A DNA stretch of 64,000 bases, taken from NCBI GenBank assembly GCA_951812955.1, contig OX638340.1, forward strand, positions 832,001-896,000, read 5' to 3'. The notes beneath the pieces are model-generated. The model had not been told where the DNA came from, searched no databases, and saw nothing but the letters and a program-made list of their open reading frames with translations. The position numbers and the translations under genes were made by a program. Positions 14,568-64,000 of the stretch are shown piece by piece (within the stretch, counting starts at the first letter, position 1; every line of letters starts with the position of its first letter). Source of the DNA: an uncultured Gemmatimonadota bacterium (GTDB lineage Bacteria > JAAXHH01).

Positions 14568-15650
14568 TCAGTCGGACAAAAGTTCCTGCAACCGATTGAT
14601 TACCAGGTCTACCTCTCCCGGTTGCAGCGTACCGAGTTTCACCCGGAAACGGCTGTTCCTGCACCAGGTTACGATGGAAGGTTCACCGTCAAGCAACAGC
14701 CTTTCGAATTCCAGGTCGGAACATCCAATCCGCTCGAGGTCGATTTCTACGGAGACCACGTCGCCGCTTCGCTTGACCGAGTTTACCAGGGAGGATGAGG
14801 CCAGCCCCTTTCGGATCGCCAGGCCCATGCGGTTGTATTCCCTGCGGACCGCGTCCTCGTCCCTTTCCATGATGTACTTTACCGCTGCGTAGATGCCGGC
14901 CAGCTCTTCCTTTCCTACCTTCATGGTTCGGCCAATGGCCCGGTTGGGATTGCCGTGGGCGGCACATCCCTCGATGATGGACCGCTTGCCGATTACGAGT
15001 CCGGTGGTCTGTGGGCCGCGAATCGCCTTTCCGCCGCTGGCGATTATGGCATCCACTCCCAGTTCACGGGTGAAATACCGGAAATTCGCTTTCGGAGGTA
15101 TACTGAAGGCCGCGTCAACGAGAACGGGTACGTTATGCCCGTGGGCGATGTCGACGATACGGTCAATGGGCAGCATGCGACCCCAGGGAGACAGCGTCAG
15201 CACGGCAGCCGTTCGTTCGTTGATACAAGCCGCAAGTTGTTCCTCCGTGGCGCCGCGCTCGTCTCCCATTTCCACGATCACCGCGCCGGGGGACTGGATG
15301 GCGATGTCCTCGTAAAACCGCGCGCAGCGGTGCACGATGACCTCGTTCTTCATGCCGGACGTATCGGGCAGTCTTTCGATCTTTTCCGGGTCCGTTCCGG
15401 CCATGCAGGCGGCGACCGCCAGCGCGATCCCACCCGCGGCACCGCAGCTCACGTACGCGGCCTCGTTTCCGGTCATTTCGGCAATGGCCTTGCCGACACG
15501 TGTCTGCATCTCGTGCAGGTTGACGTACTGGCGGGACGCTTCGACCATGGCTTCCACCGCGCAGGGCCACATGATCGATCCGCCGAACCGCGTGTAGTTG
15601 TCGGCGGCGTTTATGAAAGGGCGGACGCCCAGTTCCTCGTAAACATCCAT
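14568..15650 (-). CDS. SelA-like (PF03841-type) PLP-dependent enzyme
   Basis: The 360-aa fold-type-I PLP enzyme pattern resembles SelA/DgaE-like proteins, but it lacks the long N-terminal domain of canonical SelA. Confidence 0.45.
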   Translation of the reverse strand: MDVYEELGVRPFINAADNYTRFGGSIMWPCAVEAMVEASRQYVNLHEMQTRVGKAIAEMTGNEAAYVSCGAAGGIALAVAACMAGTDPEKIERLPDTSGMKNEVIVHRCARFYEDIAIQSPGAVIVEMGDERGATEEQLAACINERTAAVLTLSPWGRMLPIDRIVDIAHGHNVPVLVDAAFSIPPKANFRYFTRELGVDAIIASGGKAIRGPQTTGLVIGKRSIIEGCAAHGNPNRAIGRTMKVGKEELAGIYAAVKYIMERDEDAVRREYNRMGLAIRKGLASSSLVNSVKRSGDVVSVEIDLERIGCSDLEFERLLLDGEPSIVTWCRNSRFRVKLGTLQPGEVDLVINRLQELLSD

Positions 15651-18384: not shown

Positions 18385-20085
18385 GTGTCCCAAAAACACG
18401 CTTTGGAAATCTGTGGAAAATACCCTGAACGCGCAGAACGCATGGCCTTCCCAGGCAAGTTCCTTGGGCGGGTACATCTCGATGCGTGCCGGACCGGTTG
18501 CATGATTTGTCCGGGGCTGGGCCCGGAGCTCGGTCGCCCCTATTATGACGACCGCTGGGGCGACGATACCGACTGGATCGACGGCGAATCCGCCTGGACT
18601 CTGTTCAAAGCAAGCACGGCAGGTGACCTGGAAGTTATCGCAGCACTCCTCGACGAAGACCCGCGTCTCGTGAATGCGATGCACTGGTACACCCAGCCCG
18701 TACACCTGGCCGCCCGGCACGGGCACGCCGAAGCGACGGAGTTGCTTCTCGCTCGGAACGCCGACCCGGGGCTGGTTATTTTCGATTCGACCTGGTCAAG
18801 CCTGCTCGAGAACACACGATCCCGTGGGTTTGAGGACGTAGTGGAAGTGATTTCCGGTGCGATGCGAGATCGATTCGGCTACGATCCCGCGTTCATGGAG
18901 ATAGCCGGGCTGATTGAGAACAGCAACGTTGAAATGGTTAAAACGGCGCTGAATGACAATCCCGAACTCGTTGATCGATCCGACGCGGCAGGAAACAACG
19001 GTCTTCACCTCGGTGTGATAAATGGCCGTAAAAACCTGGTCGAACTGTTTCTCGAACGCGGTCTGCCCATAGATTCACGACGTGCTGACGGGAAAACACC
19101 GCTGACACTGTCTTTCGACACGGGTTTCGGACAACATCCACCGGACCCGAAACTGGGTATAACCGAGAATCTTTTGATGAATGGTGCGGATTACGCCATC
19201 ACGGCAGCCAGTTACCTGGGTGATCATGCCCGGGTTCGTTCGATCCTCGATGAGAATCCATCGGCTGCCGGCCGCGACGCGTCGATGAAGAGCCCCCTGG
19301 CGTACGCGGCTAGAGCGGGGCACGAAGATATTGCCCGGATGCTGCTTGACGCAGGAGTCGATGGCCATGTCGTGGACGAAGCGCTTTTTGAAGCTGTATG
19401 GTGTAAGCACGCGGGTGTTGCTGACCTGTTGCTGGAATACGGAGCCAACCCGAACGTGGAATTGGATTCTTGCGGATATGCCGCGGGTACCGATGAACAC
19501 GCGATACGGGATCTGCTCGTGCGTAATGGCGGGGTGACTCCACCATATTGGGAACTGGGTCAAAACGAACTCCGTCAGCTGGTGGATTGCAGAGCCGCAA
19601 GGGTCCGAGATCCCTACCTGATTGCGAATGTGCTCGAATCCGAGGACGAGAAACTGATCGACAGGTTACTGGATGGTGATCCACTTGCACTCGGCCGCCT
19701 GGAGGAACTTCAATACCTGCCGGGATGGGGTGACCATGCTGTGATTACGCGCAAACTGGTCGCGGCGGGGCTCGATCCGAACCGAAGGACATTCGAAGGC
19801 CAGACCTATCTTCACGTCTGTGCCAGGCAGGGCTGGGAGAAGACGGCTCAGGCATTAATCGAACAAGGTGCTGCGGTAAACGTACTGGATGAGAAGGAAG
19901 GCTGGACACCGCTGGCGATCGCGGTCAAAAACGGCCGGATCGGTATGGTTCGGCTGTTGTTGGAACGCGGCGCGGATCCCTACCTGGCCGATTGGCCATG
20001 GACTCGACCGCTAACGGTTGCAGAGGAGATTGATAACGAAGGAATTACAGAACTTTTACGTCTCTACAAAGGCAATACTGCATAA
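18385..20085 (+). CDS. Ankyrin-repeat protein (566 aa)
   Basis: At least 10 ANK repeats (QPVHLAARHGHAEATELLLARNADP, GWTPLAIAVKNGRIGMVRLLLERGADP). Confidence 0.85.
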   Translation: MSQKHALEICGKYPERAERMAFPGKFLGRVHLDACRTGCMICPGLGPELGRPYYDDRWGDDTDWIDGESAWTLFKASTAGDLEVIAALLDEDPRLVNAMHWYTQPVHLAARHGHAEATELLLARNADPGLVIFDSTWSSLLENTRSRGFEDVVEVISGAMRDRFGYDPAFMEIAGLIENSNVEMVKTALNDNPELVDRSDAAGNNGLHLGVINGRKNLVELFLERGLPIDSRRADGKTPLTLSFDTGFGQHPPDPKLGITENLLMNGADYAITAASYLGDHARVRSILDENPSAAGRDASMKSPLAYAARAGHEDIARMLLDAGVDGHVVDEALFEAVWCKHAGVADLLLEYGANPNVELDSCGYAAGTDEHAIRDLLVRNGGVTPPYWELGQNELRQLVDCRAARVRDPYLIANVLESEDEKLIDRLLDGDPLALGRLEELQYLPGWGDHAVITRKLVAAGLDPNRRTFEGQTYLHVCARQGWEKTAQALIEQGAAVNVLDEKEGWTPLAIAVKNGRIGMVRLLLERGADPYLADWPWTRPLTVAEEIDNEGITELLRLYKGNTA

Positions 20086-21145: not shown

Positions 21146-22372
21146 ATGATGAACGCCACCATCAGACAATTGCCCGATCAGCCGAATCTGCGACTACTCG
21201 AAAACGAGGCATCTGAACTGCTCGAGAATGGCTCCTGCACTACACAGGCCGAGGCACGTTTCAAACTAGCGCACCTGTACGGTTTTAAGAGTTGGCCGAA
21301 ACTGGAAGCCTACGTATCATCCATCGGATCCATGGGAGAACTCGAACAGGCAATCCAGGACGACGACGTCGATAGAGTGAAGCGGATATTGGACGAGGAC
21401 CCGGGGCTGATTCACCGTGAAGGGCACTGGGTCAAACGCCGCAGGCACAACGGCTACCTGCCGCTCGCATACGCTGCGTTTTTCGGTAAGGTAAACGTGC
21501 TGGCGGCACTGGTCGAGGCCGGTTCGAATGTACGCGCTGGGGAGGACAAGGCGTTACGAGCCGCGGCGTGTTTCGACAAAAACCTCCCCGCGGTCGAATT
21601 ACTGATCCGCCATGGAGCAGACCCAAACGCATCGACTACATCGCCTTCCGGTGTCCCGTACCGGGTGATCGATTATCCATGCATGACGTTGGCGCCCAAG
21701 ATGTTAGCCCACCTGGTTGAGAAGGGCGGTATTTTGAAGCCGGCCAATGCCGGGATGGTACTCGCGACGAATGAACGCAGACCCCGGGAGAAAGCCGCCT
21801 GCCTTCGCGTGATGGAACATGCGGGTATCCCGTTTCCGGATTCCCCTCCGATGGCCCTTCATCTCAGGGACTCGAACCGTCTGGAATCGCATCTGCTCAG
21901 GGATCCCGGATTGCTCTCGAGGTCGTTCAGCGAAGAAGACATCTTCCCAACGGGTTTCGAAATCAAGCGTCCTACGCCCTACGCTTACGCAACACCGCTG
22001 ACCGGTGGGGTCTCCCTGCTTCACATGGCTGTCGAGTTGTGTGACGTGGAACTGGCGCGGTGGCTCATCGAGCATGGCGCCGACGTTAATGCCGCCGCGG
22101 GGACAGACGACGAGGGATACGGCGGATGGACGCCCCTGTTCCACGCCATGGTCACGCTGCGCGTCCCACGTGGTTTTGCCGAAATCGTCGATCTGCTCCT
22201 GGATCATGGCGCCGACCCGGAAGTGCGAGCGTCCCTGCGTAAACCGACTCCAGAGGGTGGAGAAGCCACCTGGCGCGACGTTACGGCGGCCGATTACGCC
22301 CGAAGATTCATCTACACGGATTTAGTCAATCACGACGCGCTGCAGCGGGTCATGGTGGCCGGTGCGAAATAG
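21146..22372 (+). CDS. Ankyrin-repeat protein with a distinct N-terminal module
   Basis: ANK repeats (GVSLLHMAVELCDVELARWLIEHGADVNA). The N-terminus carries AHLYGFKSWPKLEAYV. Confidence 0.8.
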   Translation: MMNATIRQLPDQPNLRLLENEASELLENGSCTTQAEARFKLAHLYGFKSWPKLEAYVSSIGSMGELEQAIQDDDVDRVKRILDEDPGLIHREGHWVKRRRHNGYLPLAYAAFFGKVNVLAALVEAGSNVRAGEDKALRAAACFDKNLPAVELLIRHGADPNASTTSPSGVPYRVIDYPCMTLAPKMLAHLVEKGGILKPANAGMVLATNERRPREKAACLRVMEHAGIPFPDSPPMALHLRDSNRLESHLLRDPGLLSRSFSEEDIFPTGFEIKRPTPYAYATPLTGGVSLLHMAVELCDVELARWLIEHGADVNAAAGTDDEGYGGWTPLFHAMVTLRVPRGFAEIVDLLLDHGADPEVRASLRKPTPEGGEATWRDVTAADYARRFIYTDLVNHDALQRVMVAGAK

Positions 22373-22400: not shown

Positions 22401-24284
22401 ATGGACCCCGCCATGACTCCGAAAACGCCTTCTACCAGTCTACAGGTTGGTACCGTGTCCGATCACGATTATGCCCCCTCGAAGAACTGGCCCTACCCGG
22501 TCACAAAGTCACAAATCATGGACGAGGTCCGGAAACTGTCATTGGCCATCCAGGACGGTCGTGCCGAAGCCATGGCAGAAAAAAACAGGTATGGAAGTTC
22601 AGCTGATCCGTCATCGTTCTCCCCGGACGACGCACGGAACGTACTCGCCCTAAGTTACGGATTCCCGGGCTGGACACAGGTAGAACGGTACTTCGATACG
22701 GTAGACAGGTATTCGCGCGACCCTAACATGGAACCCACGCCAACCAATTCGGATGACGCGTCTTCGCTCGCCGATGTTTTCCTTCGTCTTGCCTGCCTGA
22801 CGCAGGGCGTCCAGGACCACCCGTCTCGGTGGGCAAGGGCCAGGGCCTTGCTCGATGACCATCCGAAACTATCCCGGTTGAATATCTACACCGCTTCGGT
22901 CGCCGGCGACGTTTCAGCCGTGGGCGAATACCTGGAAGCGGATTCTGAACTGGCTACGACGCCTGGCGGCCCCCATGACTGGGAGCCCCTGCTATACCTG
23001 GCGTATTCCCGTCTGGACCGCGAGACCTCGGGGCATTCCGCCGTCGAAATCACCCGGTTGCTCCTCTCCCATGGCGCCGACCCGAACGCGGGCTACCTCT
23101 GGGCGGGTTTCCCCTGCCCTTACACCGTACTGACCGGAGTCTTCGGCGAGGGTGAGAACGGTCCGGTCAGGTGTCCTCCACACCCTAACTGCTGCAAACT
23201 GGCGGAAATCCTGTTGGAGGCCGGGGCCGATCCCAACGACGCCCAGACACTATACAACAGGATGTTCAGCCGCGACGACGAACACCTTCGGTTCCTGTTC
23301 ACGCACGGCCTGGGGAAGGACCGGGACCGGCCCTGGCACCGGTTGTTGGGCGAACAATCCCGCGGCTGGGTGAGCAGTCCCGCGAGCATACTGGCCTACC
23401 AGCTTCAGTGGGCAGCCCGATGGAACTACCTGGATCGCGTCAAGTTACTGGTCGAAAACGGCGCCGACGTAAACAGGCCCTCCAACCGGCCCGATGCGCG
23501 ATCACCTTACCGCGAGGCCGTGTTCCACGGAAACGAGTCCATCGCCGAATACCTGGCAATCTGCGGCGCGGAGACGTTTGTGCTGGACGACCTGGACCGT
23601 TTCGCCGGCGCGTGCATCAGTGGAGACCTGGGTCGTGCCCGCGCGATGCTCGCACGCGATCCGTCACTCGTTGAAAAACTTGGAGAACGCGGGAACACGC
23701 TCATGGAGAACGCCGTTGGGTCGGACAACCGGGACGCGGTCCGGCTGATGTTCGAACTGGGCTTCGACTTGAAGAAATCCGGTATGCAAGAAGCGGCCCG
23801 TTATGGCCACCTGGACATGATCAAACTGCTGGTCGAGCTTGGGACTGATGTTTCCCAAACGGACGCGGGCCACGAGATCTGTGCCCTGGGCTATGCCAGC
23901 CATTACCAGCAAAATAACGTGATCGACTACCTGGCGCAGTTCGCCGGGATACACAGAGCAGTGCAGTCGGACTTGTTGGAACGGGTCGGGGAACTGCTTG
24001 ACGAAGATCCCGGTCTCGTACACGCTCGAGATACCAGCGGCAACTCGCCGCTGCACTGTCTCGACGTGGACAACAGGATGGAAGATACGGAGGAGATACT
24101 CCGTCTGCTCGTAACGCACGGAGCCGATGTCAATGCCAGAAACAAGGAAGGCCTGACACCGCTCGACAGGCTGGAGCTTCTTTCCGGTTTCAGTCGAAGA
24201 GACGGTTTGGCGGAACTGTTGCGCGGGTACGGGGCCGTGGAGTCAGACGCCGCCGACGGGTCAAAGAACCGTCCGGAGTCGTGA
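22401..24284 (+). CDS. Ankyrin-repeat protein (627 aa) with an N-terminal module
   Basis: Many ANK repeats. The N-terminus carries ALSYGFPGWTQVERYF. Confidence 0.8.
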   Translation: MDPAMTPKTPSTSLQVGTVSDHDYAPSKNWPYPVTKSQIMDEVRKLSLAIQDGRAEAMAEKNRYGSSADPSSFSPDDARNVLALSYGFPGWTQVERYFDTVDRYSRDPNMEPTPTNSDDASSLADVFLRLACLTQGVQDHPSRWARARALLDDHPKLSRLNIYTASVAGDVSAVGEYLEADSELATTPGGPHDWEPLLYLAYSRLDRETSGHSAVEITRLLLSHGADPNAGYLWAGFPCPYTVLTGVFGEGENGPVRCPPHPNCCKLAEILLEAGADPNDAQTLYNRMFSRDDEHLRFLFTHGLGKDRDRPWHRLLGEQSRGWVSSPASILAYQLQWAARWNYLDRVKLLVENGADVNRPSNRPDARSPYREAVFHGNESIAEYLAICGAETFVLDDLDRFAGACISGDLGRARAMLARDPSLVEKLGERGNTLMENAVGSDNRDAVRLMFELGFDLKKSGMQEAARYGHLDMIKLLVELGTDVSQTDAGHEICALGYASHYQQNNVIDYLAQFAGIHRAVQSDLLERVGELLDEDPGLVHARDTSGNSPLHCLDVDNRMEDTEEILRLLVTHGADVNARNKEGLTPLDRLELLSGFSRRDGLAELLRGYGAVESDAADGSKNRPES

Positions 24285-26353: not shown

Positions 26354-27874
26354 ATGCCGTCCCTGCCTTCACAACCCGATATACGCCATCTCAGTCTGCA
26401 GGCGAAAACGCTTCTGAAGTCCGCGCGCAGCGGCGAAGAGCATGCCGTAGACAGAATCCGCTCGGCCATCGGAGTGCGACGCGAACGCCTCGTGCTGTCG
26501 GACGCCTACCATGCCATCGCCAGGGAATACGGGTTCAGGTCCTGGCCCCATCTCAAGATACACATCGAAATCGTCGCTAGAAACCTGGACGAACAGCGCG
26601 AGATGTTTCTGTCATCGGCATGGCTGTGGGGCGATCGGCAGAGAGCCGAGGCCCTGCTCGCTACCGCTCCGGAACTCTCCAAGGGAAACATCCATGCCGC
26701 CTGCGCCGCCGGGGACGTGGATGCCGTCGCAGGTATCCTGGAGGCCGACCCCGCTTCGGCCACGACGAAGGGCGGTCCGAGAGACTGGCCCCCGATACTC
26801 TACGCGACGTGGTCCTGCTTTCTTTCCGAACGTGCCGACGCCATGGTCCGAGTCCTGGAATTGCTGCTGCGGCACGGCGCCGACCCGGACAGCTACTGGG
26901 TGAACGAGTCGGACTGGAAAGAGTCGGCCCTTTACGGATGCGTTGAAAACAACTGCGTACCGGCGGCCAGGGTGCTGGTGGACGCGGGCGCCAACCCAAA
27001 TGACAACGAATCCCTCTACCACGCCTGTGAGAAATTCAACCTGGAACTGCTCGACACGGTCGCGGCGAACGGACTGGACGCGGAAGGCGTCTCCTATTGC
27101 ATCAAGCATGCCATGGACATGACATGGACCGAGGCCGTCATGTGGTTTCTCGACCAGGGCGCCGATCCCAACGCCATCCATCCCGCCGACCGGGAGACCT
27201 CCCTTCACTGGGCGGTAAAGAGAAACTGCACAGCAGACGTGATCAGTGCGCTCCTGGACGCCGGAGCGGACCCCAACGCACGCACGTCGACCGGGAAGAG
27301 TACGGCCCTCGGGATCGTCGGCTGGACGCCCCTCGATTTCGCCTTCCGGCTCGGTCGCGGGGAGGTCGCCGCGCTCCTACAGCGGAATAGCGCCGAACCG
27401 TCCCCCATGTCCGAATACGACCGCTTCGTAGTCGCGTGCGCCAATACGGACCTCGATATCGTGGAGCAACTGAAAGACCGTCACCTGGCCAACTTGACTG
27501 ACGACGACCGGACCCTCATCAGCCACGCGGCCCAGATGGACAACTGGGCGGCGGTCCGTCTCATGGCGGACCTGGGCTGGCCGGTAGACGCCCGGGGCTG
27601 GATGGATGCCACGCCCCTCTACTGGGCCCTGTGCAAAGGCCATGCCGAAATGGTCGATTTCCTGCTTCGGCGGGGTGTCTCCATCGAACCCATCGGCGGA
27701 TACTTCCAGGATCCGGTCCATGCCGTGATTCATTGCCAGTGGAATGGGGACAAAAGCGGGTACCCGGTCGCGCTCGGTCGACTGCTCGACCATGGCCTCG
27801 GCGTTCCGGAAGGACGCTATCCATGCGGCAATGTCGCGATGGACGAGGTGCTGTCGCGCTACGTCGAAAACTGA
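26354..27874 (+). CDS. Ankyrin-repeat protein (506 aa) with an N-terminal module
   Basis: ANK repeats (ETSLHWAVKRNCTADVISALLDAGADPNA). The N-terminus carries AIAREYGFRSWPHLKIHIE. Confidence 0.8.
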   Translation: MPSLPSQPDIRHLSLQAKTLLKSARSGEEHAVDRIRSAIGVRRERLVLSDAYHAIAREYGFRSWPHLKIHIEIVARNLDEQREMFLSSAWLWGDRQRAEALLATAPELSKGNIHAACAAGDVDAVAGILEADPASATTKGGPRDWPPILYATWSCFLSERADAMVRVLELLLRHGADPDSYWVNESDWKESALYGCVENNCVPAARVLVDAGANPNDNESLYHACEKFNLELLDTVAANGLDAEGVSYCIKHAMDMTWTEAVMWFLDQGADPNAIHPADRETSLHWAVKRNCTADVISALLDAGADPNARTSTGKSTALGIVGWTPLDFAFRLGRGEVAALLQRNSAEPSPMSEYDRFVVACANTDLDIVEQLKDRHLANLTDDDRTLISHAAQMDNWAAVRLMADLGWPVDARGWMDATPLYWALCKGHAEMVDFLLRRGVSIEPIGGYFQDPVHAVIHCQWNGDKSGYPVALGRLLDHGLGVPEGRYPCGNVAMDEVLSRYVEN

Positions 27875-28035: not shown

Positions 28036-28110
28036 GCCTGTGTTTCATCGCACCCGATGCCAACCGGCATATGATCAACCAAGATGACGCCCGTTTCGAG
28101 GAGGCACTGC

Positions 28111-28386
28111 ATGGCCCGCATGGTCCAATGCGTAAAGCTCAACAAAGAACTCGAAGGTCTCGAATTCGTACCATTCCCCAACGAGCTTGGCCAGCGCATC
28201 TACGACAACATTTCCAAAGAGGCCTGGCAGATGTGGATCCACCATTCGGTCATGGTCATCAACGAGTACCGCCTGAATCTCGCCACGACCGAAAGCCAGG
28301 AAATCTACGACCGGCACCTGGAGGAGTTCCTTTTCGGTGAAGGCGCCGAAATGCCGCCGGGATACCGCCCTCCCCAGACGAAATGA
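28111..28386 (+). CDS. yggX: Fe(2+)-trafficking / oxidative damage protection protein YggX
   Basis: MVQCVKLNKELEGLEFVPFPNELGQRIYDNISKEAWQMWIHHSVMVINEYRLNL... aligns well with E. coli YggX. GAGGAGG lies 7 nt upstream of the ATG. Confidence 0.85.
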   Translation: MARMVQCVKLNKELEGLEFVPFPNELGQRIYDNISKEAWQMWIHHSVMVINEYRLNLATTESQEIYDRHLEEFLFGEGAEMPPGYRPPQTK

Positions 28387-28419: not shown

Positions 28420-29868
28420 ATGAAACGTGATGATGGCATCCTCCTCATTTCCTGCTATGAACTGGGTCATCAGCCCTTCAGCCTCGCTTCCCCCGCGGCC
28501 CGCCTGAAGTCCGAAGGATACGAAGTCTCCGTAGTCGATGCCGCGATCGAGCCGATCCCGGAAGATGCCGTCCAGCGTGCCGGGTTTATCGGCATCTCGG
28601 TTCCCATGCATACGGCCATGCGGGTGGGCATGGACCTGTCCGGCCGAATCCGGAACCTCAATCCGGACGCGCACCAGTGCTACTACGGACTCTACGCCAC
28701 GCTGAACGCAGACTATCTCCTGTCCCACGGCGCCGATTCGGTAATCGGAGGCGAATTCGAACAACCGCTCTGCGACCTTGTGGATAGATTGTGCGCGGGT
28801 GATGCCGCCATGCCGGACCCCGATCCGTCCACCGCACCATCCACCGCTCCATATCTTTCACGCCAGACCTGGCTGGTCCCGGACCGAGGGAGTCTGCCCG
28901 CTTTGAAACGGTACGCCCAGCTGGACACCGGAACGGAGACGCTGCCCGCCGGTTATACCGAGACCACGAGGGGTTGCCTCCATACCTGTCTTCATTGCCC
29001 GATCACGCCGGTGTACAACGGCCGGTTCTTTGCCGTACCTGCCAACGTCGTGCTCGCCGACATAGCCCAGCAGGTGCGCATGGGCGCCCGCCACATCACC
29101 TTCGGGGACCCGGATTTCCTGAACGGTCCGACCCATGTCCTTCGCATTCTGCGCAGGCTGAAGGAAACCCATCCCGGAATCACCTTCGATTTCACCACCA
29201 AGATCGAACATATCCTCCGGCACGCGGGGTTTTTCCCCGAGGCGAAGGCGCTCGGCGCGCTTTTCGTCGTATCGGCCGTCGAATCGGTCAGCGATCTCGT
29301 GCTCATGCGCCTGGAGAAAGGTCACACTCGGGAGGACATCGTCAGGGCGCTCGCTATCCTCCGAGACGCGGACCTGCCCATGCGGCCTTCGCTGGTGGCC
29401 TTCACACCCTGGACGACGCTGGACGACTATCTGGAATTGCTGGATTTCGTCGAAGTTCACGACCTGGTCGATCACATCGACCCGGTGCAGTACACCATAC
29501 GACTGCTCGTGCCGCCCGGTTCGGCCCTGCTGGAAACAGAGGATGCCAGGACCTGGATCGGCAAGCTGGATGAAGCCGGGTTTACTTACGAGTGGAGCCA
29601 TTCCGATGCTAGAATGGACCACCTGCATCGGCGGGTATCCCGTCTTGTGGAAGGAGCCGACGCTTCGGGGGAGGAGCGGGACAACCGGAGCATCTTTCAC
29701 CGGATCCGGCGCCTCGCCGCGGAGACGGCCGGAGTCGAAGCGGTCGAAGGACCCACGGAACGGCCCTTTGAAGTCCTGTCGCCGAAACGGCGACGGATCC
29801 CCAGGCTGACCGAGGCCTGGTTCTGCTGAGCGGAGCCCACGGCGAGCCGGAAAGGCTCGTTCATTTGA
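28420..29868 (+). CDS. B12-binding-domain radical SAM protein, probably a selenoprotein: an in-frame UGA (29827-29829) read as Sec gives a C-terminal ...AWF-C-U-A-E-P-TASRKGSFI
   Basis: N-terminal B12-binding-like domain, then a radical SAM CLHTCLHC (CX3CX2C) motif. The ORF caller stops at the TGA at 29827, but the same frame continues Ala-Glu-Pro plus 9 codons to a TGA at 29866-68. A hairpin follows about 19 nt downstream of the UGA. Confidence 0.6.
29842..29860 (+). promoter_or_regulatory. Candidate bacterial SECIS hairpin
   Basis: GCGAGCC-GGAAA-GGCUCGU forms a 7-bp stem (one G.U pair) with a GGAAA apical loop. The loop starts 19 nt after the UGA, within the usual bacterial SECIS spacing, and contains GG. 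Confidence 0.4.
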
Positions 29869-29884
29869 TCTTTACGGGTGAAAA

Positions 29885-31084
29885 TCAGGAAGCATAACCG
29901 TCCTGGACGGGGCCGCAGTGCTGCGACCGGGCGGGCGCCCGATACTGCACGCGGTGATCGGGCGTCTCGATGCGTATGCCGCCCTGCTGTTTCGAAGTAA
30001 GACAATGATCGAGGATGCCGCATACGGTCAACGTCCGTTCAACCGGGATCGGTGATACGCCGGTCTCGAACATCTCGTCGATCCTCGACACAAGGCAGGC
30101 CGAGTAGGTAACCGGAGGAGTGGGCGGCAGGAAGAACTGGGTCGAACAGGGCTCAGGTTCGTCTTTGAGGCGGGCGGCGAAACAATAGTCGCCGATCGCG
30201 CCATTGAGCATGAGCAGCGTGGTCTGAAGACCGTCCATGTGTTCGATGAAGTAGGCGGCCGGCTCAGTGGCGAGCCGGTGCAATTCGCCCGTCCCCAGCA
30301 GGTCCTGCGTGCGGCCATCCTGCTCGGGCAGTCCCTTCGGACTGTCACAGCGCGACAGTGCCGATTCCAGCAATTCCTTCGAGTAACGTCCCTGGTCGCC
30401 GGCCTCCCACACCGCGTCCCCCACGATCATCTGGACAGACCTGACGCCCGTCTCGCCACCCCTGCGACGCTCGATCATGCACTGCATGGCCTCGAGTGCG
30501 TGATAGTCCATGGCGTCCGAACCGCCGACCCCTACCATCAGCGCTTCGTCGATATCGCATTCCAGCGGCAGTTCGAGGTCGGGCAGCCGCCATGTGACCG
30601 GAAGGCTCGAACCCGCGAGCACTGGAAAACCGAGCCGCTTGGAATCGGCCACCATTTCCAGGCCCCTTGCAAAGCTGTAGGAGAGATTCTTGTCGTTGTA
30701 GACCGGCACTGAGCGGCCGTCCTGCTCGAAAACTTCGACGCAGGCCTTGAACATCTCGTAGCGCGGGTAGAGTTTCTGTCCCTTCTCGTTGTCCGAATAG
30801 TCGCCGTGTTCGCAGATGATCAGGATCCCGTCCACCGCCAGGGAATCCCCGCCGCACCGCAGGGCTTCGGCTATGGTGGGATAGACCTCGAAACCGAACT
30901 CGCGGGCGCGGTCTGTGCTCTGGTCGCCTTCGGGACGCTGATCCACGTAAAGCGACACAACCTCGACGTCCGGCCTGCGCCAGCGGCCCGAATTCGGATA
31001 GCCGACGAGGAACCGGTCCGCGAAATGCTGCGAGTGGGAGAGATAGGTGTAGATTGAACTGATGACGGCGAGCCGCTTCGGCAT
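29885..31084 (-). CDS. Uncharacterised protein, second of a tandem paralog pair (possibly a distant Rossmann/MocA-like fold)
   Basis: At 399 aa it shares long conserved blocks with the upstream gene (SLYVDQ, EHGDY, NEKGQKLYPRYEMF, AGSSLPVTWR). No canonical GxGxxG. Confidence 0.5.
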   Translation of the reverse strand: MPKRLAVISSIYTYLSHSQHFADRFLVGYPNSGRWRRPDVEVVSLYVDQRPEGDQSTDRAREFGFEVYPTIAEALRCGGDSLAVDGILIICEHGDYSDNEKGQKLYPRYEMFKACVEVFEQDGRSVPVYNDKNLSYSFARGLEMVADSKRLGFPVLAGSSLPVTWRLPDLELPLECDIDEALMVGVGGSDAMDYHALEAMQCMIERRRGGETGVRSVQMIVGDAVWEAGDQGRYSKELLESALSRCDSPKGLPEQDGRTQDLLGTGELHRLATEPAAYFIEHMDGLQTTLLMLNGAIGDYCFAARLKDEPEPCSTQFFLPPTPPVTYSACLVSRIDEMFETGVSPIPVERTLTVCGILDHCLTSKQQGGIRIETPDHRVQYRAPARSQHCGPVQDGYAS

Positions 31085-31087
31085 GGT

Positions 31088-32341
31088 TCAATATCTCCAG
31101 AAGGTGGAGTTTTCAGGCGCGGGGTATTCGACGTCGAGATGGGGCGTTTCCAGCCTTACCTGTCCTTCGTGCAGGCTGTCGACGCCGGCCGCGGTCAGTC
31201 CCGATGTCAGGAGGGTCCGCTCGACGGGATAGGCGGCCTCGCCGGACAGGAACATCTGTTCCACGTTGTTGACCTGCGGCGAGAAGAAGTTGGCCAGCGA
31301 GGTGCGCGCAGGCGGCATAGGCAGGTACATCTGGGTCGACAGCGGTTCGCTGCGCCCCGACAGGCGAGCCGCGAAGTTGAAGTCTTCGACCAGCCCGCTA
31401 AACAGGATCATGGTGCACTTGACCCCGTCGCGGTGCTCGTAAGTGTAGGCGACGGGATCCTCCACCATCCGCTTCATCTCGTTGATGGTCGGGAAGACGT
31501 TGTTGAACCCGTCGCGGGATGGTTTCAGCGTGTGACTGCGACACAGTGCCGCTTCGAAGAGTTCGCGGGACCACACTTCGTCGTGGAAAGCCTCCCAGAA
31601 TGCCTCGAGCCGACGGGCGTGGAGCCAGGAGACGCCCGACTCGCCGCCCTTGCGCCGTTCGACCATGCATTGCAGGGTCTCCAGGCCGTGGAAATCGTAA
31701 CTGTCGACCCCGCCGTAGCATACGCACACGGCTTCTTCGACCTCGGCGTGAAGCGGCATGTCGACTGAGGGCGTCCGCCACGTGACCGGCAGGCTGGATC
31801 CGGCCATGAAGGCAAAACCCAGGCGCTGCGCGGTATCGTACATTTCCTTGGCCCAGTCCCAGTTCCACGACAGGTGCTTGTCGTTGAATATGGGAACGGT
31901 ACGGCCGCTTCGCTCATAGACTTCCACGATCTCGCGGAACAGTTCGTAGCGTGGATAAAGCCGTTGTCCCTTCTCGTTGGTTTGATACTCGCCGTGTTCT
32001 CCCACCAGGAGGACTCCGTCCACCTGCAGCGAATCGCCGCCGAGGGTCAGGGCATCGGCGACCGTGGGATAGATCTTCATCTGAGGGAAACGGGCGGCGC
32101 GGTCCCGGCTCAGATCGTTCTCGCCCACCTGGTCCACGTATAGGGAGACCAGGTCCATGGGCGGATGGTGGTGCCGGCCGCCCCAGCCATATCCCTCAAG
32201 GAACCGGTCCACGATATGCTGAGTGTGGGCGTACGGATGGTAGACCGTCGTAATCGCGGAAATCTTGGGTCTGTTGGACATGGTATCGGAACGCTTCGGT
32301 TGCTCCATGAAATAGTTGCGAGACCGGGACAAAGCCGGCAA
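31088..32341 (-). CDS. Uncharacterised protein, first of a tandem paralog pair
   Basis: At 417 aa it is about 45% identical to the 29885..31084 product. A 3-bp gap separates them, so they are co-transcribed. Confidence 0.5.
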   Translation of the reverse strand: MPALSRSRNYFMEQPKRSDTMSNRPKISAITTVYHPYAHTQHIVDRFLEGYGWGGRHHHPPMDLVSLYVDQVGENDLSRDRAARFPQMKIYPTVADALTLGGDSLQVDGVLLVGEHGEYQTNEKGQRLYPRYELFREIVEVYERSGRTVPIFNDKHLSWNWDWAKEMYDTAQRLGFAFMAGSSLPVTWRTPSVDMPLHAEVEEAVCVCYGGVDSYDFHGLETLQCMVERRKGGESGVSWLHARRLEAFWEAFHDEVWSRELFEAALCRSHTLKPSRDGFNNVFPTINEMKRMVEDPVAYTYEHRDGVKCTMILFSGLVEDFNFAARLSGRSEPLSTQMYLPMPPARTSLANFFSPQVNNVEQMFLSGEAAYPVERTLLTSGLTAAGVDSLHEGQVRLETPHLDVEYPAPENSTFWRY

Positions 32342-33973: not shown

Positions 33974-35338
33974 TTAAACGTCGAGCAACAGTTCGGCGGG
34001 TACCTCGATCAGGGATTTGATCCTGCCCAGGAACTGCACGGCTTCCCTTCCGTCAATGATCCGGTGGTCGTAGGTCAGTGCCGCGTACATCATGGGCCGG
34101 ATCACGATCTCGCCGTCGACGGCAATGGGCCGGTCGTCGATTCGGTGCAGACCCAGAATCCCCACCTGGGGCGGGTTCAGGATAGGCGTGCTCAGCATGG
34201 ATCCGAAAACCCCGCCGTTCGTGATCGTAAAGGTCCCTCCCCTCAGGTCCTCCAAAGAAAGCTTGCCGTCCCCGGCCCTGGCCGCGTATTCGCGTATACC
34301 GCCTTCGATCTCGGCAAAAGTCATCCGATCCGCGTCCCGGAGGACGGGTACCACGAGCCCGTCTTCGGCACCGACCGCGATGCCGATGTCATAATAATGC
34401 TTCCTGACAATCGTATCCTCACGGATCTCGGCATTCAACTCTGGAAATTCCCTTAGCGCGCCGATCACGGCTTTTACGAAGAAGGACATGAATCCCAGCC
34501 GGACGCCGTGCCGCTTCTCGAAGGACTCCCGGTTTTTGCGTCGGATCGTCATCACCGCGCTCATGTCGATCTCGTTGAAGGTCGTCAGCATCGCGGCGGT
34601 CTGCTGCGCTTCCACGAGCCGACTGGCGATGGTGCGCCGCCGCCGGGACATGGGTATAACCTCCTCACGATGGTCACGGGATGCTTCGGAAGTATCGGCG
34701 GAAACGGCCGCGGCCGCCGCCTGCGCGGGAGCATCGGTCGCTGCGGAGTCACGGGATCGACTGGCTTGCCGCTCCGTCCTGCCAGAACCTCGTTCATCGG
34801 GCTCCCGCCCTGTTTCATCCGAAACGGCTTTCTCCTTCCTCGCTGCCACGGCCCGCTCTACGTCCTCCCTGCAGATCCGTCCTCCCATCCCGGTCCCTTC
34901 CAACCCGGCCAGGGAGATGCCCGCTTCGTCCGCCATACGGCGCGCCACGGGCGTTGCGCGATCGTCCGCAACCTCGTCTGCCTGGTTCGCCGCAGCCTGC
35001 TCGCCCGCAGCCGCAGCCTGCTCGCCCGCAGCCACAGCCTGCTCGCCCGCAGCCACAGCCTGCTCGCCCGCCGCCGCAGCCTGCTCGCCCGCCTTGACAC
35101 CGCCGTCTTCCAGCACACCGAGCAGATCGCCAATTTTTACATCCTCTCCCGCCGTGCGTTCGATGCGGGCCAGGACGCCGCTGTCGTTGGCGTTCACTTC
35201 GAGGGTAACTTTTTCGGTCTCCAACTCCAGCAGGGCCTCACCGGTCGTGACCGTATCGCCTTCCACTTTGAACCACTGGACGACCGTTGCTTCGACAATG
35301 GATTCACCGAGTTGCGGTACGGTGATGTCGATTGCCAT
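33974..35338 (-). CDS. sucB: 2-oxoglutarate dehydrogenase E2 (dihydrolipoyllysine-residue succinyltransferase)
   Basis: Lipoyl domain (ETEKVTLEV), an Ala/Glu/Gln repeat linker, an E3-binding domain and a catalytic DHRIIDG motif. Directly downstream of sucA. Confidence 0.85.
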
Positions 35339-35468
35339 ATAGCGCTCCCTGGTTAAACTGTAGTAGCCACGGTTCCCGTCAAGTGTCGGGACTCCGTCTA
35401 ATCCACGAACTGGAATTCCTGAACACGCGTACTCGAATCGAACAAAATGCGCAGGACGGCGCGATCTG

Positions 35469-38327
35469 TCAATTCATCTCGATGTTTCCCGATGCGCCCA
35501 TTGCAAAGGCCATCTTCACCAGGTTATGCTGATTTCGATTGTGAATGGCGGTCGAACCCTCGGAAGGACTCGCACTCGGCGGCCGGGAAACCAGAAATAA
35601 CGGGCAGCGTCCGTCGAGCGCACTTTCCAGCACCTTGCGCACGTAGTCCCAGGCGCCCATGTTTTCCGGCTCTTCCTGAAGCCAGGCGACTTCCTTCAGG
35701 TTGGGATACCTGTCGGTGATCTGTCTTACCTGGTCCAACGCGATAGGATAAAGCTGCTCTATACGGACAATCGCGGCGTGTGTCGCGTTCTCCCGGGCTT
35801 CATCGTTCATCAGATCGACGAATACCTTGCCGCTGCAGAATACCAGTCTACGGATTTTATCGGGATCTTCGAACGATCGCTCATCTTCAATGATCGGCTG
35901 CCATTTGCCTTCCGCGAGCTCACGGGCCGAGGATGCCACATCCGGATGGCGGAGCAGGCTCTTCGGCGTCATAACGATCAGGGGCAGCGGGTCGGATTCA
36001 AGCAACCTTGACTGCCTCCGCAACAAATGGAAATACTGGGCCGCCGTGGTGCAGTTGGCGATGCGGATGTTGAAATCGGCGCCGAAGGACAGGAATCGTT
36101 CCATCAGGCCGCTGGAGTGATCCGGTCCCTGCCCCTCGAATCCGTGAGGCAGCAGGATGGTCAGCGACGAGGTCTGCCCCCACTTGGCGCGGCCGGAAAC
36201 GAGGAACTCGTCGATGATGATCTGGGCTCCGTCAACGAAATCGCCGTACTGGGCCTCCCAGAGCACGAAACGTTCGGGCGCCTGTATGCTGTACCCGTAC
36301 TCGAATCCCAGGGCGGCGTATTCCGTGAGCGGCGTGTTCCGCGTTTCGAAGGACGCGTTCGCCTGGGGCAGGCGGCGAAGCGGATTCCATGCCAGGTCGG
36401 TCTCGAAGTCATGCAACACGTTGTGCCGCTGGCTGAAGGTCCCTCTTTCCACGTCCTGACCCGTCAGTCTGACTGGAACGCCGTCCTCGATGATCGTTGC
36501 GAATGCGAGGATCTCCGCCTGGGCCCAGTCGATTTTCCGTGCGTCCACATCGTCCAGCGCCCGCCGCCTGCGTTCGATAACTCTTCTGAGCCTGGGATGA
36601 AGGGTGAAGTCATCCGGGAATGTCCAGAGCGACTTGTTGAGATGCTTGAGCCGTCTCATGGAAACGGAAGAACGCACGCGTTTCGCAGTACCGGATCTCG
36701 GTGGACTGGCATAGGGCTCCACAAGTACTTCCTCGGGTTTCAGTTCATCAAGCATCTTCTGCATACCGTTCATGCGTTCGTCGACCATTTCCTCCGGTTT
36801 TCCTGTTTCGATCCTACCCTCCGACACGAGACGGTCCGCCCACAGCTTCCTCACCGTCGGATGGGATCCGATCCGCCGATAGAGACTGGGTTGGGTCAGC
36901 GACGGATCATCCCCCTCGTTGTGGCCGTGACGGCGGTACCCTATCAGATCGATCAGGAAATCCTTGCGGAATTTGACTCGGTAGCCGTAGGCGATCCGCG
37001 CGGCTTCCAGACAGGCCACCGGGTCATCGGCGTTGACGTGAATGATGGGTATTTCGAATCCCCGCGCTATATCGCTGGCATAGAGGGTGCTCCGGGATTG
37101 TTCCGAAGGCGTGGTGTATCCGAGCTGGTTGTTGGTGATCAGGTGGATGGTCCCGCCTGTTCGAAATCCGGGGACACGATAGAGCGTCAGGGTTTCCGCC
37201 ACGACGCCCTGGCCGGCGAAAGCGGCGTCGCCGTGGATCAGGATGGGCAGGTTGCGTTCCGGCAGCGGACGAACGTCGCCCGGCAGATTGGCGACCGTCC
37301 CCGCGGCGCGGGCCATGCCTTCCAGCACGGGATTGACCGCTTCCAGGTGACTGGGGTTCGGCGCCAGGTGGATATGCAGGTCCACTTCCTTGCCCTCCTG
37401 GTCCAGGTATCTTCGCTTGGCGCCGCTGTGGTACTTCACGTCACCGGTCCATCCCGAATCGTTGCCCGTCTTGTTTACCCGCTGGACCGGATCCCTGAAT
37501 TCAGCCAGTATATGCTCGTATGGCTTGTTCAGAATGTGTGCGAGGACGTTCAGCCTTCCCCGGTGAGCCATACCGATCAGGATGTTGCAGGTATTCTTCT
37601 CCGCGGCTTCGCCGATCACCCCGTCCAGGATGAGGATCATGGCGTCCAGGCCTTCGATGGAAAACCGGGTCTTGCCCGGGAAGGTCCGGTGCAGAAATTG
37701 CTCGAAGACCTCCACCTGCGTGAGCCGGTCCAGTATGTCCACGGCGCTGTATTCCTCCTCCGAGGGCCTGAACCGCCCCGTTTCCGCCGCTTCCTGCAAC
37801 CATTCCCGCTCTCCCGGCACCTCGATGTGCATGTAGTCGTAACCGGTGGTCGAGGAATATACCCGCTTGAGTTTCTTGAGCGCTTCGGAGGCGTTGCCGC
37901 ACTGCTTGCCCACCGGACCGCCGATCAGCGAGGAAGGCAGATGGCGCATCGCGTCTTCCGTCACGCCTTGCGCCGCCAGTTCCAGTTCCGTCAGCGGGTC
38001 GCCCAGTGCGGCGTCGTCGTCGGTCGCGAAGACGGAATAGGGAAAGTACCTTGGATCGGCCAGGGGATCCAGGTGCGCCCCGAGATGACCGTATTCCCGG
38101 ACATTCTGGGCGAGATTGGCAATGAAGACGATCTGGTCGATATCAGCGGGACAAGCGGGGAAAACTGCCGGTGATTCCCCGGCGGATTCACCATCGAGAG
38201 AAGGGGTGAACCGGGTAAACAATTCACGGGTCGCCGCGTCGACGGAATCGGGGTCCTGAAGGTATTGTTCGTACAACGCGATCACGTAACCGGCGTTCGG
38301 ACCATGAAACTCGCGCAAGAGATCCAA
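35469..38327 (-). CDS. sucA: 2-oxoglutarate dehydrogenase E1 component
   Basis: A 952-aa protein with typical SucA N-terminus and TPP-binding regions. TTG start preceded by GGAGGA. Confidence 0.9.
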
Positions 38328-62751: not shown

Positions 62752-64000
62752 TCAGACTCCGACCCGGTCAGTGTCGAAAGTCTCCAGGTTGCGCGTGATG
62801 TCCCGGATGAACCGGGCGGCGTTGAGACCGTCGATGAAGCGGTGGTCGAAGGACAGGCTCAGAAACATCATGGAACGGATGGCCAGGGAGTCATCCGCCT
62901 GCACGACAACCTGCTTCTTGACGCTCCCCGTGGCGAGGATGCCCGCCTCGGGCTGGTTGATGATCGGCGTGCCAAAAAGGGTGTCCCACATGCCCGGGTT
63001 CGTCAGAGTGAACGTACTGCCCTTCAGGTCGTCAGGAGACAACTTGCGGTCATGGGCACGCTTGGCCAGGTCGTGAGCCGCCTGGGCAATCTCCGAGAAA
63101 TCCATCTCGTCCGCGTGGCGGATTACCGGCACCACGACCCCCTTTTCCAGGCCCACCGCCAGCCCCAGGTTTACGTGCTTCCACTGGAGGACCCGGTCGT
63201 CGTCCATGGTGGCGTTCAGCATGGGGTTGGCGCGTAACGCGTCGACGATGGCGGTGATGAAGAAGGGGGTCAGCGTCAGCTTGATGCCGGTTTTCTGTTG
63301 GAACCGTTCCCTGGCCTCTTCGCGGTACCGGACGACGTGCGTCATGTCGACTTCCGAGACGGAGGTCACGTGGGGGGACACCTGCTTGCTGAGGACCATG
63401 TGCTTTGCGATGGTCTTGCGCAGGGTGTCCATATTCACGACGCGGGCTTCTTCGGTGCCTGCCGGCCGGGATACAGAAACGAACTCGGAATCCTCGTCCT
63501 GCTCCGCCGCCGGTTCAGGAATCCGGGACGCGCGCCGTTCCAGGTAGGTAAGCAGATCGTCCCGGGTTACCCGGCCACCCTTGCCGGTTCCTTCCAGGGA
63601 TTCCAGCATAGCCATGTCGATGCGTTCTTCCCGGGCGATGCGCAATACGAGGGGAGAGTAGAACCGTTCGGCCCGCCTTCGCCTCAGCGGCCCCCCGTCA
63701 ACGGCCTCCGCGGCCGGCGTCAATTCATCCGCATCGATCGTCTCCGGCGCTTCCCCGGCACCGTCCGGCTGCTCCTCCGAATCGGCCGCGCTGGAATCGA
63801 CGTCTTCTTCGTCCCCCGTGTCGATGACGCCGATGATTTCTCCAATGGCCACCGTCGTCCCTTCGTCCACGCGAATCTCGCTCAACACGCCGCCCGCGAT
63901 GGCGGGTATGTCCGTGTCGATCTTGTCGGTGGTGATCTCAACCACGGACTCGTCGCGCTCGATCGGATCGCCCACCTTCTTCAACCAGCGGATGACCGTT
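62752..64000 (-). CDS. 2-oxo-acid dehydrogenase E2 (dihydrolipoamide acyltransferase), 5'-partial (runs off the window end)
   Basis: Lipoyl domain (EITTDKIDTDIPA), a peripheral-subunit-binding domain and a catalytic DHRFIDG motif. The open frame continues past 64000. Confidence 0.8.
   Translation of the reverse strand, partial: TVIRWLKKVGDPIERDESVVEITTDKIDTDIPAIAGGVLSEIRVDEGTTVAIGEIIGVIDTGDEEDVDSSAADSEEQPDGAGEAPETIDADELTPAAEAVDGGPLRRRRAERFYSPLVLRIAREERIDMAMLESLEGTGKGGRVTRDDLLTYLERRASRIPEPAAEQDEDSEFVSVSRPAGTEEARVVNMDTLRKTIAKHMVLSKQVSPHVTSVSEVDMTHVVRYREEARERFQQKTGIKLTLTPFFITAIVDALRANPMLNATMDDDRVLQWKHVNLGLAVGLEKGVVVPVIRHADEMDFSEIAQAAHDLAKRAHDRKLSPDDLKGSTFTLTNPGMWDTLFGTPIINQPEAGILATGSVKKQVVVQADDSLAIRSMMFLSLSFDHRFIDGLNAARFIRDITRNLETFDTDRVGV

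Follow-up and report, generated by a model that had tools for sequence, protein, structure and literature searches.

In a stretch of 64,000 nucleotides (nt) from contig OX638340.1 of an uncultured Gemmatimonadota bacterium, referred to below as the window, a forward-strand gene at 28420–29868 very probably encodes a 482-amino-acid selenoprotein of the NCBIfam family NF040546, 'CUAEP/CCAEP-tail radical SAM (seleno)protein' (SAM, S-adenosylmethionine), with the UGA at 29827–29829 read as selenocysteine (Sec); the assignment is drawn from the sequence of the gene and of its relatives. An ATG at 28420 opens 469 codons ending in ...PRLTEAWFC, and the open reading frame (ORF) as called spans 28420–29829, its Cys codon TGC at 29824–29826 being followed directly by the TGA. 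Past this TGA the frame reads AEPTASRKGSFI up to the next stop, a TGA at 29866–29868, and the read-through product has 482 amino acids as against 469 in the called form. A first-pass annotation of this DNA, made by a model from the letters, had ended the ORF at AWFC on the TGA at 29827–29829 and continued the frame as AEPTASRKGSFI to 29866, and both its coordinates and its sequence match. The run TGC-TGA-GCG-GAG-CCC at 29824–29838 spells the Cys-(Sec/Cys)-Ala-Glu-Pro motif of NF040546. In translation the UGA would be decoded as Sec to give a vicinal Cys469-Sec470 pair followed by AEPT..., and this tail would be joined to the enzyme via a disordered linker. The parts of the gene are the following.

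28420–29868, forward strand: complete coding sequence of the probable selenoprotein, 482 codons and a stop, codon 470 being the UGA read as Sec; gene calls end at 29829.
28444–28779, forward strand: N-terminal Rossmann-like ('B12-binding-like') domain, residues 9–120; PF02310 match below threshold, AlphaFold model resembling OxsB, TsrM and AprD4.
28960–29397, forward strand: radical SAM core, residues 181–326; PF04055, with three Cys invariant in alignments A1, A3 and A4.
29743–29787, forward strand: predicted disordered linker tethering the C-terminal tail, residues 442–456; predicted local distance difference test (pLDDT) below 50 in the model.
29824–29829, forward strand: putative vicinal Cys-Sec pair, Cys469 (codon TGC) and the recoded UGA (Sec470); from ortholog codon counts and alignment A3.
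29830–29868, forward strand: post-Sec tail AEPTASRKGSFI and true stop TGA at 29866–29868; from the variation of the Ala-Glu-Pro (AEP) codons among loci.
29842–29860, forward strand: candidate bacterial Sec insertion sequence (SECIS), 7-bp stem 29842–29848/29854–29860 with apical loop GGAAA at 29849–29853; from folding and covariation.

Membership of the family follows from the profile search. The 469-residue ORF scores 671.5 bits against the NF040546 hidden Markov model (HMM), for which the curated cutoff is 500, and the read-through product, with U written as C, scores 690.5 bits over model positions 1–465 of 468. The family that the first-pass annotation had named does exist under this accession, and the read-through product lies above its cutoff in the HMM check proposed there. 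It had also been said that gene callers cut members short, and this holds for the 120 best database homologs, of which 99 end exactly at ...WFC, 20 run on as WFC-C-AEPT... and one is a frame-shifted call. An exact-sequence look-up of the window protein returned no identical record, the closest being P0001 at 95% identity. That the family is uncharacterised, another point of the first-pass annotation, is also the view of Haft 2022 (bioRxiv 10.1101/2022.07.06.499078), who places it among the few CU-motif selenoproteins whose structure and function are not well known and argues that CU motifs signal contact with a heavy atom. This preprint is the only paper naming the CUAEP family that our literature search found, and a full-text search of a 2026 review of prokaryotic selenoproteins did not return the term CUAEP.

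The reading of the UGA as Sec is supported by sequence comparison, because orthologs carry only TGA or a Cys codon at this position, keep AEP in frame after it and place at a fixed distance from it a covarying hairpin that decays in the Cys forms. The ortholog set consists of 80 loci from species-representative genomes and the window, 81 in all. The codon after WFC is TGA in 62 of them, TGC in 12 and TGT in seven, with no TAA or TAG; the replacement of Sec by Cys, which the first-pass annotation had suggested looking for, is present in 19 of the 81 loci. AEP follows this codon in frame in 81 of 81, and in 59 TGA-form loci its codons vary at third positions only (GCG/GCA/GCC, GAG/GAA, CCN), which is, at the level of sequence, the mark of a translated peptide under purifying selection; tails in TGA-form loci are 10–27 amino acids long. 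Homologs do not uniformly end without a C(U/C)AEP tail: 20 of the 120 read WFC-C-AEPT, and every one of the 81 loci keeps AEP. The contrary view would take the TGA as a real stop, with the protein ending at Cys469 and the hairpin serving as a terminator or as an mRNA stabiliser common to the convergent downstream gene. It is highly improbable, as it has to account for the absence of TAA and TAG in 62 stop-codon cases when TGA, TAA and TAG all serve as true stop behind the tail (27, 19 and 13 times, respectively, in the 59 TGA-form loci), for Cys at the UGA position in 19 loci, and for an AEP(T) kept in frame with synonymous variation only.

The hairpin itself reads GCGAGCC-GGAAA-GGCUCGU. The first-pass annotation had described it as a 7-bp stem with a GG-containing loop, and it is present as such at 29842–29860, with an eighth pair (G-U) possible at 29841/29861. 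Its placing 19 nt after the UGA stands in one sense and not in another: the stem begins 12 nt past the UGA, and the 19 nt (29830–29848) separate the UGA from the apical loop, the spacing on which the SECIS model relies. In that model of the bacterial element (bSECIS; Zhang and Gladyshev, quoted in PMC13188914) the loop has 3–9 nt and the stem 4–16 bp, at least one G stands in the first two loop positions, the UGA-to-loop distance is 16–37 nt and the minimum free energy is at most −7.5 kcal/mol. The window hairpin agrees with the model on all four points, with a 5-nt loop on a 7–8 bp stem, GG at the start of the loop, 19 nt, and −13.3 kcal/mol for the 33-nt segment. The folding check proposed with the first-pass annotation gives, for a 71-nt region, z = −3.3, a stability that none of 200 shuffles equals. 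A bSECIS-style scan of all TGAs in the window returned the site in this gene and 15 others, none of them convincing; the latter appear as off-frame noise or ordinary gene ends. In an Rfam scan of 29700–30000 no family came near its gathering score, and a 'tRNA-Sec' match on the minus strand at 29720–29803 is noise (13 bits against the 47 needed, E = 6).

Conservation of the hairpin was expected at orthologous loci, and it is found in register and covarying in 55 distinct TGA-form tails. These align gap-free, with stem columns +16 to +22 facing +28 to +34 across a loop at +23 to +27; 88.8% of cells pair in the 55 sequences, as against 21–54% when the 3' arm is slid by 1–3 columns. Compensatory two-sided changes occur in six of the seven pairs, 0 of 500 shuffles match the observed covariation score, and no variation is seen in the closing C-G pair or in the G at loop position 2. 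Some of this covariation couples a synonymous to a non-synonymous site (GAC...GGU vs GAU...GAU), for which conservation of the peptide is no explanation. Mean folding energy is −11.5 kcal/mol in 60 Sec loci and −5.9 kcal/mol in 19 Cys loci (Mann-Whitney p = 7e-8). In the TGA-form loci the distance from hairpin to UGA is constant, whereas that from hairpin to true stop is variable. As a bacterial SECIS, the element would bring SelB with Sec-tRNA(Sec) to the ribosome.

Several observations weigh against Sec decoding and lend something to the stop-codon view set out above. A crude, simple terminator scan flags 29841–29861 in the window's clade, the convergent gene lies only 17 nt past 29868, and no selA, selB, selC or selD is found within the 64 kb window; the searched literature, moreover, shows no measured selenium incorporation for any NF040546 member. 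A termination signal, however, does not fit a hairpin whose position is tied to the UGA and not to the gene end, which is followed by a T-run in one of 59 loci only, and which is gone where the codon is Cys. In the window's clade the hairpin stands 6 nt ahead of the true stop, and a second weak hairpin at 29861–29882 occupies the 17-nt gap to the convergent gene; in this clade the first hairpin might double as SECIS and terminator. Decoding of the UGA as Sec in the source organism is what we infer from conservation.

The search for that machinery covered both the window and the other loci. NCBIfam scans of about 50 ORFs and tblastn with Escherichia coli SelA, SelB and SelD found no selA, selB or selD in the window, and ARAGORN found no tRNA genes in the window, hence no tRNA-Sec, and no tRNA-Sec in loci L001–L060. 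The one related gene of the window, for a SelA-related pyridoxal phosphate (PLP) enzyme of the DgaE family at 14568–15650 on the reverse strand (TIGR01437, 179 bits, below the cutoff of 385), does not encode selenocysteine synthase itself. Over all loci, the same tblastn found selD in five Acidobacteriota loci only, 1–8 kb from the radical SAM gene. In one of these, L025, selD lies about 1.5 kb from a TGA-form gene and is itself interrupted in frame by a TGA where the E. coli protein has Cys17 (...VSCAG*AAKL...), so that this genome must decode Sec. Adjacency of selD was considered as a sign of a selenium substrate, a clue that is weakened in L025 and L023, where selD is part of a selenoneine-type cluster with SenA, EgtB and a flavin adenine dinucleotide (FAD) disulfide reductase; it may instead mark a clade-specific 'selenium island'. 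This cluster of Blastocatellia adjoins the ATP-grasp, radical SAM and Nfu cluster divergently (L025 3300–8458; L023 3534–7498; L034 1–1798) and consists of SenA (493 bits, cutoff 420), EgtB, the FAD disulfide reductase and the selD with an in-frame TGA. In L017, selD stands beside a Cys-form gene. For relatives of the source organism, most symbiont bins of Aplysina sponges have SelA and SelB according to Slaby et al. 2017, whose Table S4 lists the two genes for both Gemmatimonadetes bins, bin94 and bin43. In a SelB/SelD search of a plasmid collection, Thermomicrobium roseum is not among the matches listed, and Gemmatirosa kalamazoonensis (Gemmatimonadota) has selD on a plasmid.

The enzyme that would carry the Cys-Sec tail belongs to the radical SAM superfamily. 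Its CX3CX2C motif, announced in the first-pass annotation, is found at C186, C190 and C193 (RGCLHTCLHCP; codons 28975–28998), and PF04055 (Radical_SAM) matches residues 181–326 with 46.8 bits (cutoff 29.5). The N-terminal B12-binding domain of the same annotation is less secure: PF02310 (B12-binding) matches residues 9–120 with 30.6 bits and just misses its threshold of 32.1 bits, and the label rests on fold similarity in the model and not on a passed family test. The AlphaFold model of the window protein has a pLDDT of 87.5 and a predicted TM-score (pTM) of 0.87; that of a Cys-form homolog with its full tail drops in confidence from 90 to about 50 through and past the CC pair. Foldseek places the model near OxsB (5ul3), TsrM (6wte), AprD4 (6fd2), MgmA (9ccb) and MiaB (7mjy), with E = 5e-18 to 1e-13, query TM-scores of 0.55–0.70 and 15–18% sequence identity, and a sequence search of the PDB gave a single weak match, MgmA (9ccb). 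The N-terminal domain has four residues, C12, H17, H64 and C87, that only the CUAEP family conserves and that are replaced in ArsL-type proteins. The linker at 442–456 is part of an additional segment, about 50 alignment columns long, without counterpart in ArsL-type proteins (alignment A3).

ArsL (NF040542) is the second-best family, at 321.9 bits over model positions 1–407 of 423. This enzyme of arsinothricin biosynthesis has a CX3CX2C motif and unusually splits SAM into methylthioadenosine and a 3-amino-3-carboxypropyl (ACP) radical or Fe-C species; it joins the aminocarboxypropyl group to As(III) held by three C-terminal cysteines. CUAEP and ArsL-type proteins align colinearly along about 400 residues, 36–38% of which are identical. 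The Cys of the Cys-Sec pair matches, in alignment A3, the first Cys of the As(III)-binding CC in RCCLKC tails, and Cys-form CUAEP members have both their C-C positions opposite that CC. According to PMC13598754, the highest catalytic efficiency belongs to an ArsL variant named MCCA; the name is read here as an ArsL tail cut down to the CC pair, a point on which that passage is not explicit. The ArsL-type genes used for comparison come from plasmids of Bacillus cereus (L082), Alicyclobacillus (L085) and Priestia (L086), whose arsenic islands contain the ArsL-type gene, an ATP-grasp gene, a carboxymuconolactone-decarboxylase (CMD)-family gene, a CobW-like GTPase and an ArsN1 acetyltransferase. 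To these genes the Bacillus and Priestia loci add a MIP channel, and the Alicyclobacillus locus a major facilitator superfamily (MFS) transporter and arsM, its ArsL-type gene adjoining arsM and arsN1. In the arsinothricin and ArsL literature searched, no role is mentioned for the ATP-grasp gene of these clusters.

By analogy, the window enzyme might work like ArsL and transfer ACP to a heteroatom held by Cys-Sec, a proposal that we put forward tentatively. The [4Fe-4S] cluster on the CX3CX2C motif would split SAM at the Cγ–S bond into methylthioadenosine and an ACP radical or Fe-C species. The C-terminal Cys-Sec pair would most likely hold the soft heteroatom that receives the aminocarboxypropyl group; arsenic is improbable as this substrate, which may be selenium or some other chalcogen or metalloid. 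Joining of ACP to the heteroatom would give a 2-amino-4-(heteroatom)butanoate. This product would be processed, in about a third of genomes, by an ATP-grasp amino-acid ligase encoded alongside, and in a few genomes a neighbouring MFS transporter might export it. In the mostly aerobic hosts the Fe-S cluster would be supplied or protected by the adjacent YggX, as in the window, or elsewhere by Nfu or IscA-type proteins. The wider notion that the CUAEP family is a selenium-dependent counterpart of ArsL, acting on selenium, tellurium, antimony or sulfur, is more doubtful.

With ArsL the window protein shares the N-terminal Rossmann-like domain, the CX3CX2C core, a Cys-rich C-terminal tail and nearby ATP-grasp ligase genes. 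It differs in carrying its tail on the extra segment of about 50 alignment columns, in offering two chalcogen ligands, one of them Se, instead of three, in the additional C12, H17, H64 and C87, and in the setting of CUAEP genes, which lack the arsM, arsN1, arsR and Acr3 context and have YggX or Nfu neighbours instead of an arsenic island. Because of these differences, the missing arsenic partners among them, the substrate is probably not arsenic. The same comparison supplies what speaks against an ArsL-like reaction. The ArsL model cutoff of 450 bits is not reached, and the RCCLKC motif with its three As(III)-binding Cys is absent, the tail being WFC-U-AEP. ArsN1, CobW and CMD have no match in the window or the 81 loci, and ArsM has one weak methyltransferase match in the 81 loci (30% identity, L013). 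C12, H17, H64 and C87 could mean another cofactor or another role of the tail. To our knowledge, no sequence determinant of the Cγ–S cleavage by ArsL has been recognised, and the ArsL-like step suggested here is based on homology. Lastly, about 20 of the 81 loci are without any recurrent neighbour, and no neighbour is universal.

The Cys-Sec pair could alternatively be a redox centre instead of a substrate clamp, which we regard as unlikely. In that case the flexible tail would carry a selenenylsulfide and pass electrons on, as does the C-terminal Gly-Cys-Sec-Gly of mammalian thioredoxin reductase, to reduce the substrate or the active site of a canonical 5'-deoxyadenosyl-radical enzyme, perhaps cobalamin-dependent. 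The disordered linker would suit such a tail, the conserved His17 lies in the loop after strand 1, and C12 and C87 of the N-terminal domain might act as relay partner. In fold the enzyme comes nearest to OxsB and TsrM, both of cobalamin type, and to AprD4, and redox enzymes make up most known selenoproteins (PMC13188914). Against this reading, AprD4 has the same fold and is not known to use cobalamin, the Pfam B12-binding match is sub-threshold, no conserved thioredoxin-type or reductase partner adjoins the gene, and ArsL, by far the closest characterised homolog, has an aligned Cys pair that binds substrate and is not redox-active.

The gene neighbourhoods bear on both the ArsL-like proposal and a further alternative. 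The recurrent neighbours in the 81 loci are the following.

28084–28386, forward strand, in the window: yggX-type gene for Fe(2+) trafficking/oxidative damage protection (PF04362, 126.8 bits; NF003817, 128.8 bits).
YggX-type gene: directly upstream, same strand, in 29 of 81 loci including the window, from several phyla.
Nfu or NfuA-type Fe-S carrier: adjacent, same strand, in 17 of 81 loci, never together with YggX.
IscA-type carrier: directly upstream in one of 81 loci (L078).
Rrf2 regulator and ferredoxin: directly upstream in one of 81 loci (L051).
ATP-grasp gene of the L-amino-acid-ligase type (PF13535 and LAL_C2): near the radical SAM gene in 27 of 81 loci.
Fmt-like formyltransferase: divergent upstream in Chloroflexota, 18 of 81 loci.
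DUF169 (PF02596) gene: directly downstream in Nitrospirota and Planctomycetota, 10 of 81 loci.
Atg22-like MFS transporter: near the radical SAM gene in seven of 81 loci.

In the window a gap of 33 nt separates the yggX-type gene from the radical SAM gene, which follows it on the same strand, and the two probably form one operon. A protein handling iron or Fe-S is paired with the radical SAM gene in about 48 of the 81 loci. The ATP-grasp ligases near CUAEP genes are distant from the ATP-grasp gene of the ArsL clusters (23–27% identity). Neighbours of this kind are read as pointing to a demanding or fragile Fe-S cluster and, in at least part of the family, to an amino-acid-like product, which fits the ArsL-like proposal without proving it. 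The DUF169 gene occurs in L024, L032, L052, L055, L062, L063, L070, L073, L077 and L079, and in Nitrospirota it sits between the radical SAM gene and the ATP-grasp gene. The genes for tRNA-Gly(GCC) and tRNA-Cys(GCA) lie directly upstream of the yggX/radical SAM genes in two loci (L006 8012–8168; L007 9392–9541), and in L008 a tRNA-Cys gene lies downstream.

Fe-S neighbours would also be expected if Cys-Sec, together with C12, H17/H64 and C87, ligated a second metal site or an auxiliary Fe-S cluster, for chalcogen insertion or mobilisation of the kind carried out by MiaB, RimO and LipA; a consumed or labile cluster would then explain YggX, Nfu and IscA. NfuA re-supplies the sacrificial cluster of LipA. 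We consider this reading slightly less probable still than the redox tail. In its favour, Fe or Fe-S trafficking genes adjoin the radical SAM gene in the loci counted above (about 48 of 81), C12, H17, H64 and C87 are conserved in the CUAEP family and not in ArsL-type proteins, and MiaB is among the structural neighbours, with an hhalign probability of 94.6%. That alignment, though, begins at residue 75 and leaves C12 uncovered, and it puts C87 four residues off the MiaB cluster cysteine; a MiaB-like auxiliary cluster was demoted to a rival on these grounds. ArsL, the closest relative, has no auxiliary cluster.

The family is widely distributed. A scan of species-representative genomes found it in at least 583 species-level genomes, spread over Gemmatimonadota, Acidobacteriota, Chloroflexota, Nitrospirota, Planctomycetota, Poribacteria and others; the closest relatives of the window gene are in metagenome-assembled genomes (MAGs) of sponges and corals labelled Gemmatimonadetes or Latescibacterota (77–81% identity). 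Of the members sampled, some three quarters use Sec, and for lineages that are mostly aerobic this is unusual. Cultured hosts include Thermomicrobium roseum and Ktedonobacter racemifer (Sec form) and Thermogemmatispora aurantia (Cys form). The T. roseum protein, WP_012643191.1, is an annotated NF040546 example and is likewise cut at the TGA in the gene table of the plasmid collection. Its gene lies at L081 8953–10389 on the megaplasmid NC_011961.1, between a divergent PLP aminotransferase and a convergent MFS transporter, and the DNA goes on as AEPLEDPSGP... with the hairpin GGACCCGUCGGGUCC. A TGA-form gene with a bacterial-type in-frame SECIS also occurs on a thaumarchaeon-binned contig (L072; DATIWG010000074.1, labelled Nitrosotalea sp.), which is probably mis-binned because archaeal SECIS elements are in untranslated regions.

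For annotation, the consequence would be that the gene needs 13 more codons, with Sec at position 470, and that its called form drops the residue most likely to do chemistry. If the CUAEP family were indeed a selenium-dependent counterpart of ArsL, the product would be a novel 2-amino-4-(heteroatom)butanoate, elaborated by ATP-grasp ligases, DUF169 proteins or formyltransferases and exported by transporters; the pairing with YggX, Nfu or IscA would imply a cluster that is consumed or unusually fragile; and aerobic bacteria of soils, together with symbionts of sponges and corals, would have a widespread, unrecognised route to carbon-heteroatom bonds. An ArsL-like core, a Cys-Sec pair where ArsL binds arsenic, no arsenic genes nearby, and recurrent Fe/Fe-S or amino-acid-ligase partners together make the ArsL-based proposal a testable hypothesis.

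The remainder of the window contains genes of several other kinds. Six ankyrin-repeat genes lie within 28 kb, at 310–1470 and 3844–5577 on the reverse strand and at 18385–20085, 21146–22372, 22401–24284 and 26354–27874 on the forward strand; genes of this type are typical of symbionts of sponges, and with the sponge and coral MAGs as nearest relatives they point to a Gemmatimonadota-like symbiont of a sponge or coral as the source of the DNA. A tandem pair of paralogous genes, each about 400 codons long, at 29885–31084 and 31088–32341 on the reverse strand, converges on the selenoprotein gene; neither has a Pfam or NCBIfam match, and outside the nearest loci from sponge and coral MAGs, L002–L005, they are not conserved. 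The genes sucB and sucA (2-oxoglutarate dehydrogenase E2 and E1) are found at 33974–38327 on the reverse strand, and a second E2-type acyltransferase gene at 62752–63984, also reverse, runs off the window end; these are the ordinary central metabolism of an aerobe.

Compared with known systems, the window protein resembles several in part. Cobalamin-type and related radical SAM enzymes (OxsB, TsrM, AprD4, MgmA and MiaB) share with it a Rossmann-like domain followed by a radical SAM barrel, and none of them has a Cys-Sec tail. Thioredoxin reductase (GCUG) and the mercuric reductase MerA (CC) carry C-terminal vicinal Cys-Sec or Cys-Cys tails. In these, as with the CU motifs of HgcA and SAO proteins (Haft 2022), an adjacent pair on a flexible extension brings electrons or a soft metal to the active site; thioredoxin reductase, MerA and HgcA are, however, flavoproteins or corrinoid proteins with folds and cofactors unrelated to the radical SAM barrel, and the likeness is one of analogy only. 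The candidate SECIS lies within the coding region right after the UGA, as does that of the E. coli fdhF type, and no Rfam family matches the window hairpin. The bulged U of the fdhF element has no evident equivalent in it. NF040546 itself shares with the window protein the full-length HMM match, the C-U-A-E-P tail, the CX3CX2C motif, the length and the order of domains. The sponge and coral Gemmatimonadota-like clade to which the window belongs stands apart by its own tail, AEPTASRKGSFI, where other members have AEPTxxQ[F/L]xPL, and by the SECIS loop GGAAA, where others have AGUUN. The gene is a further member of a catalogued family of no known function, from which it differs in nothing essential.

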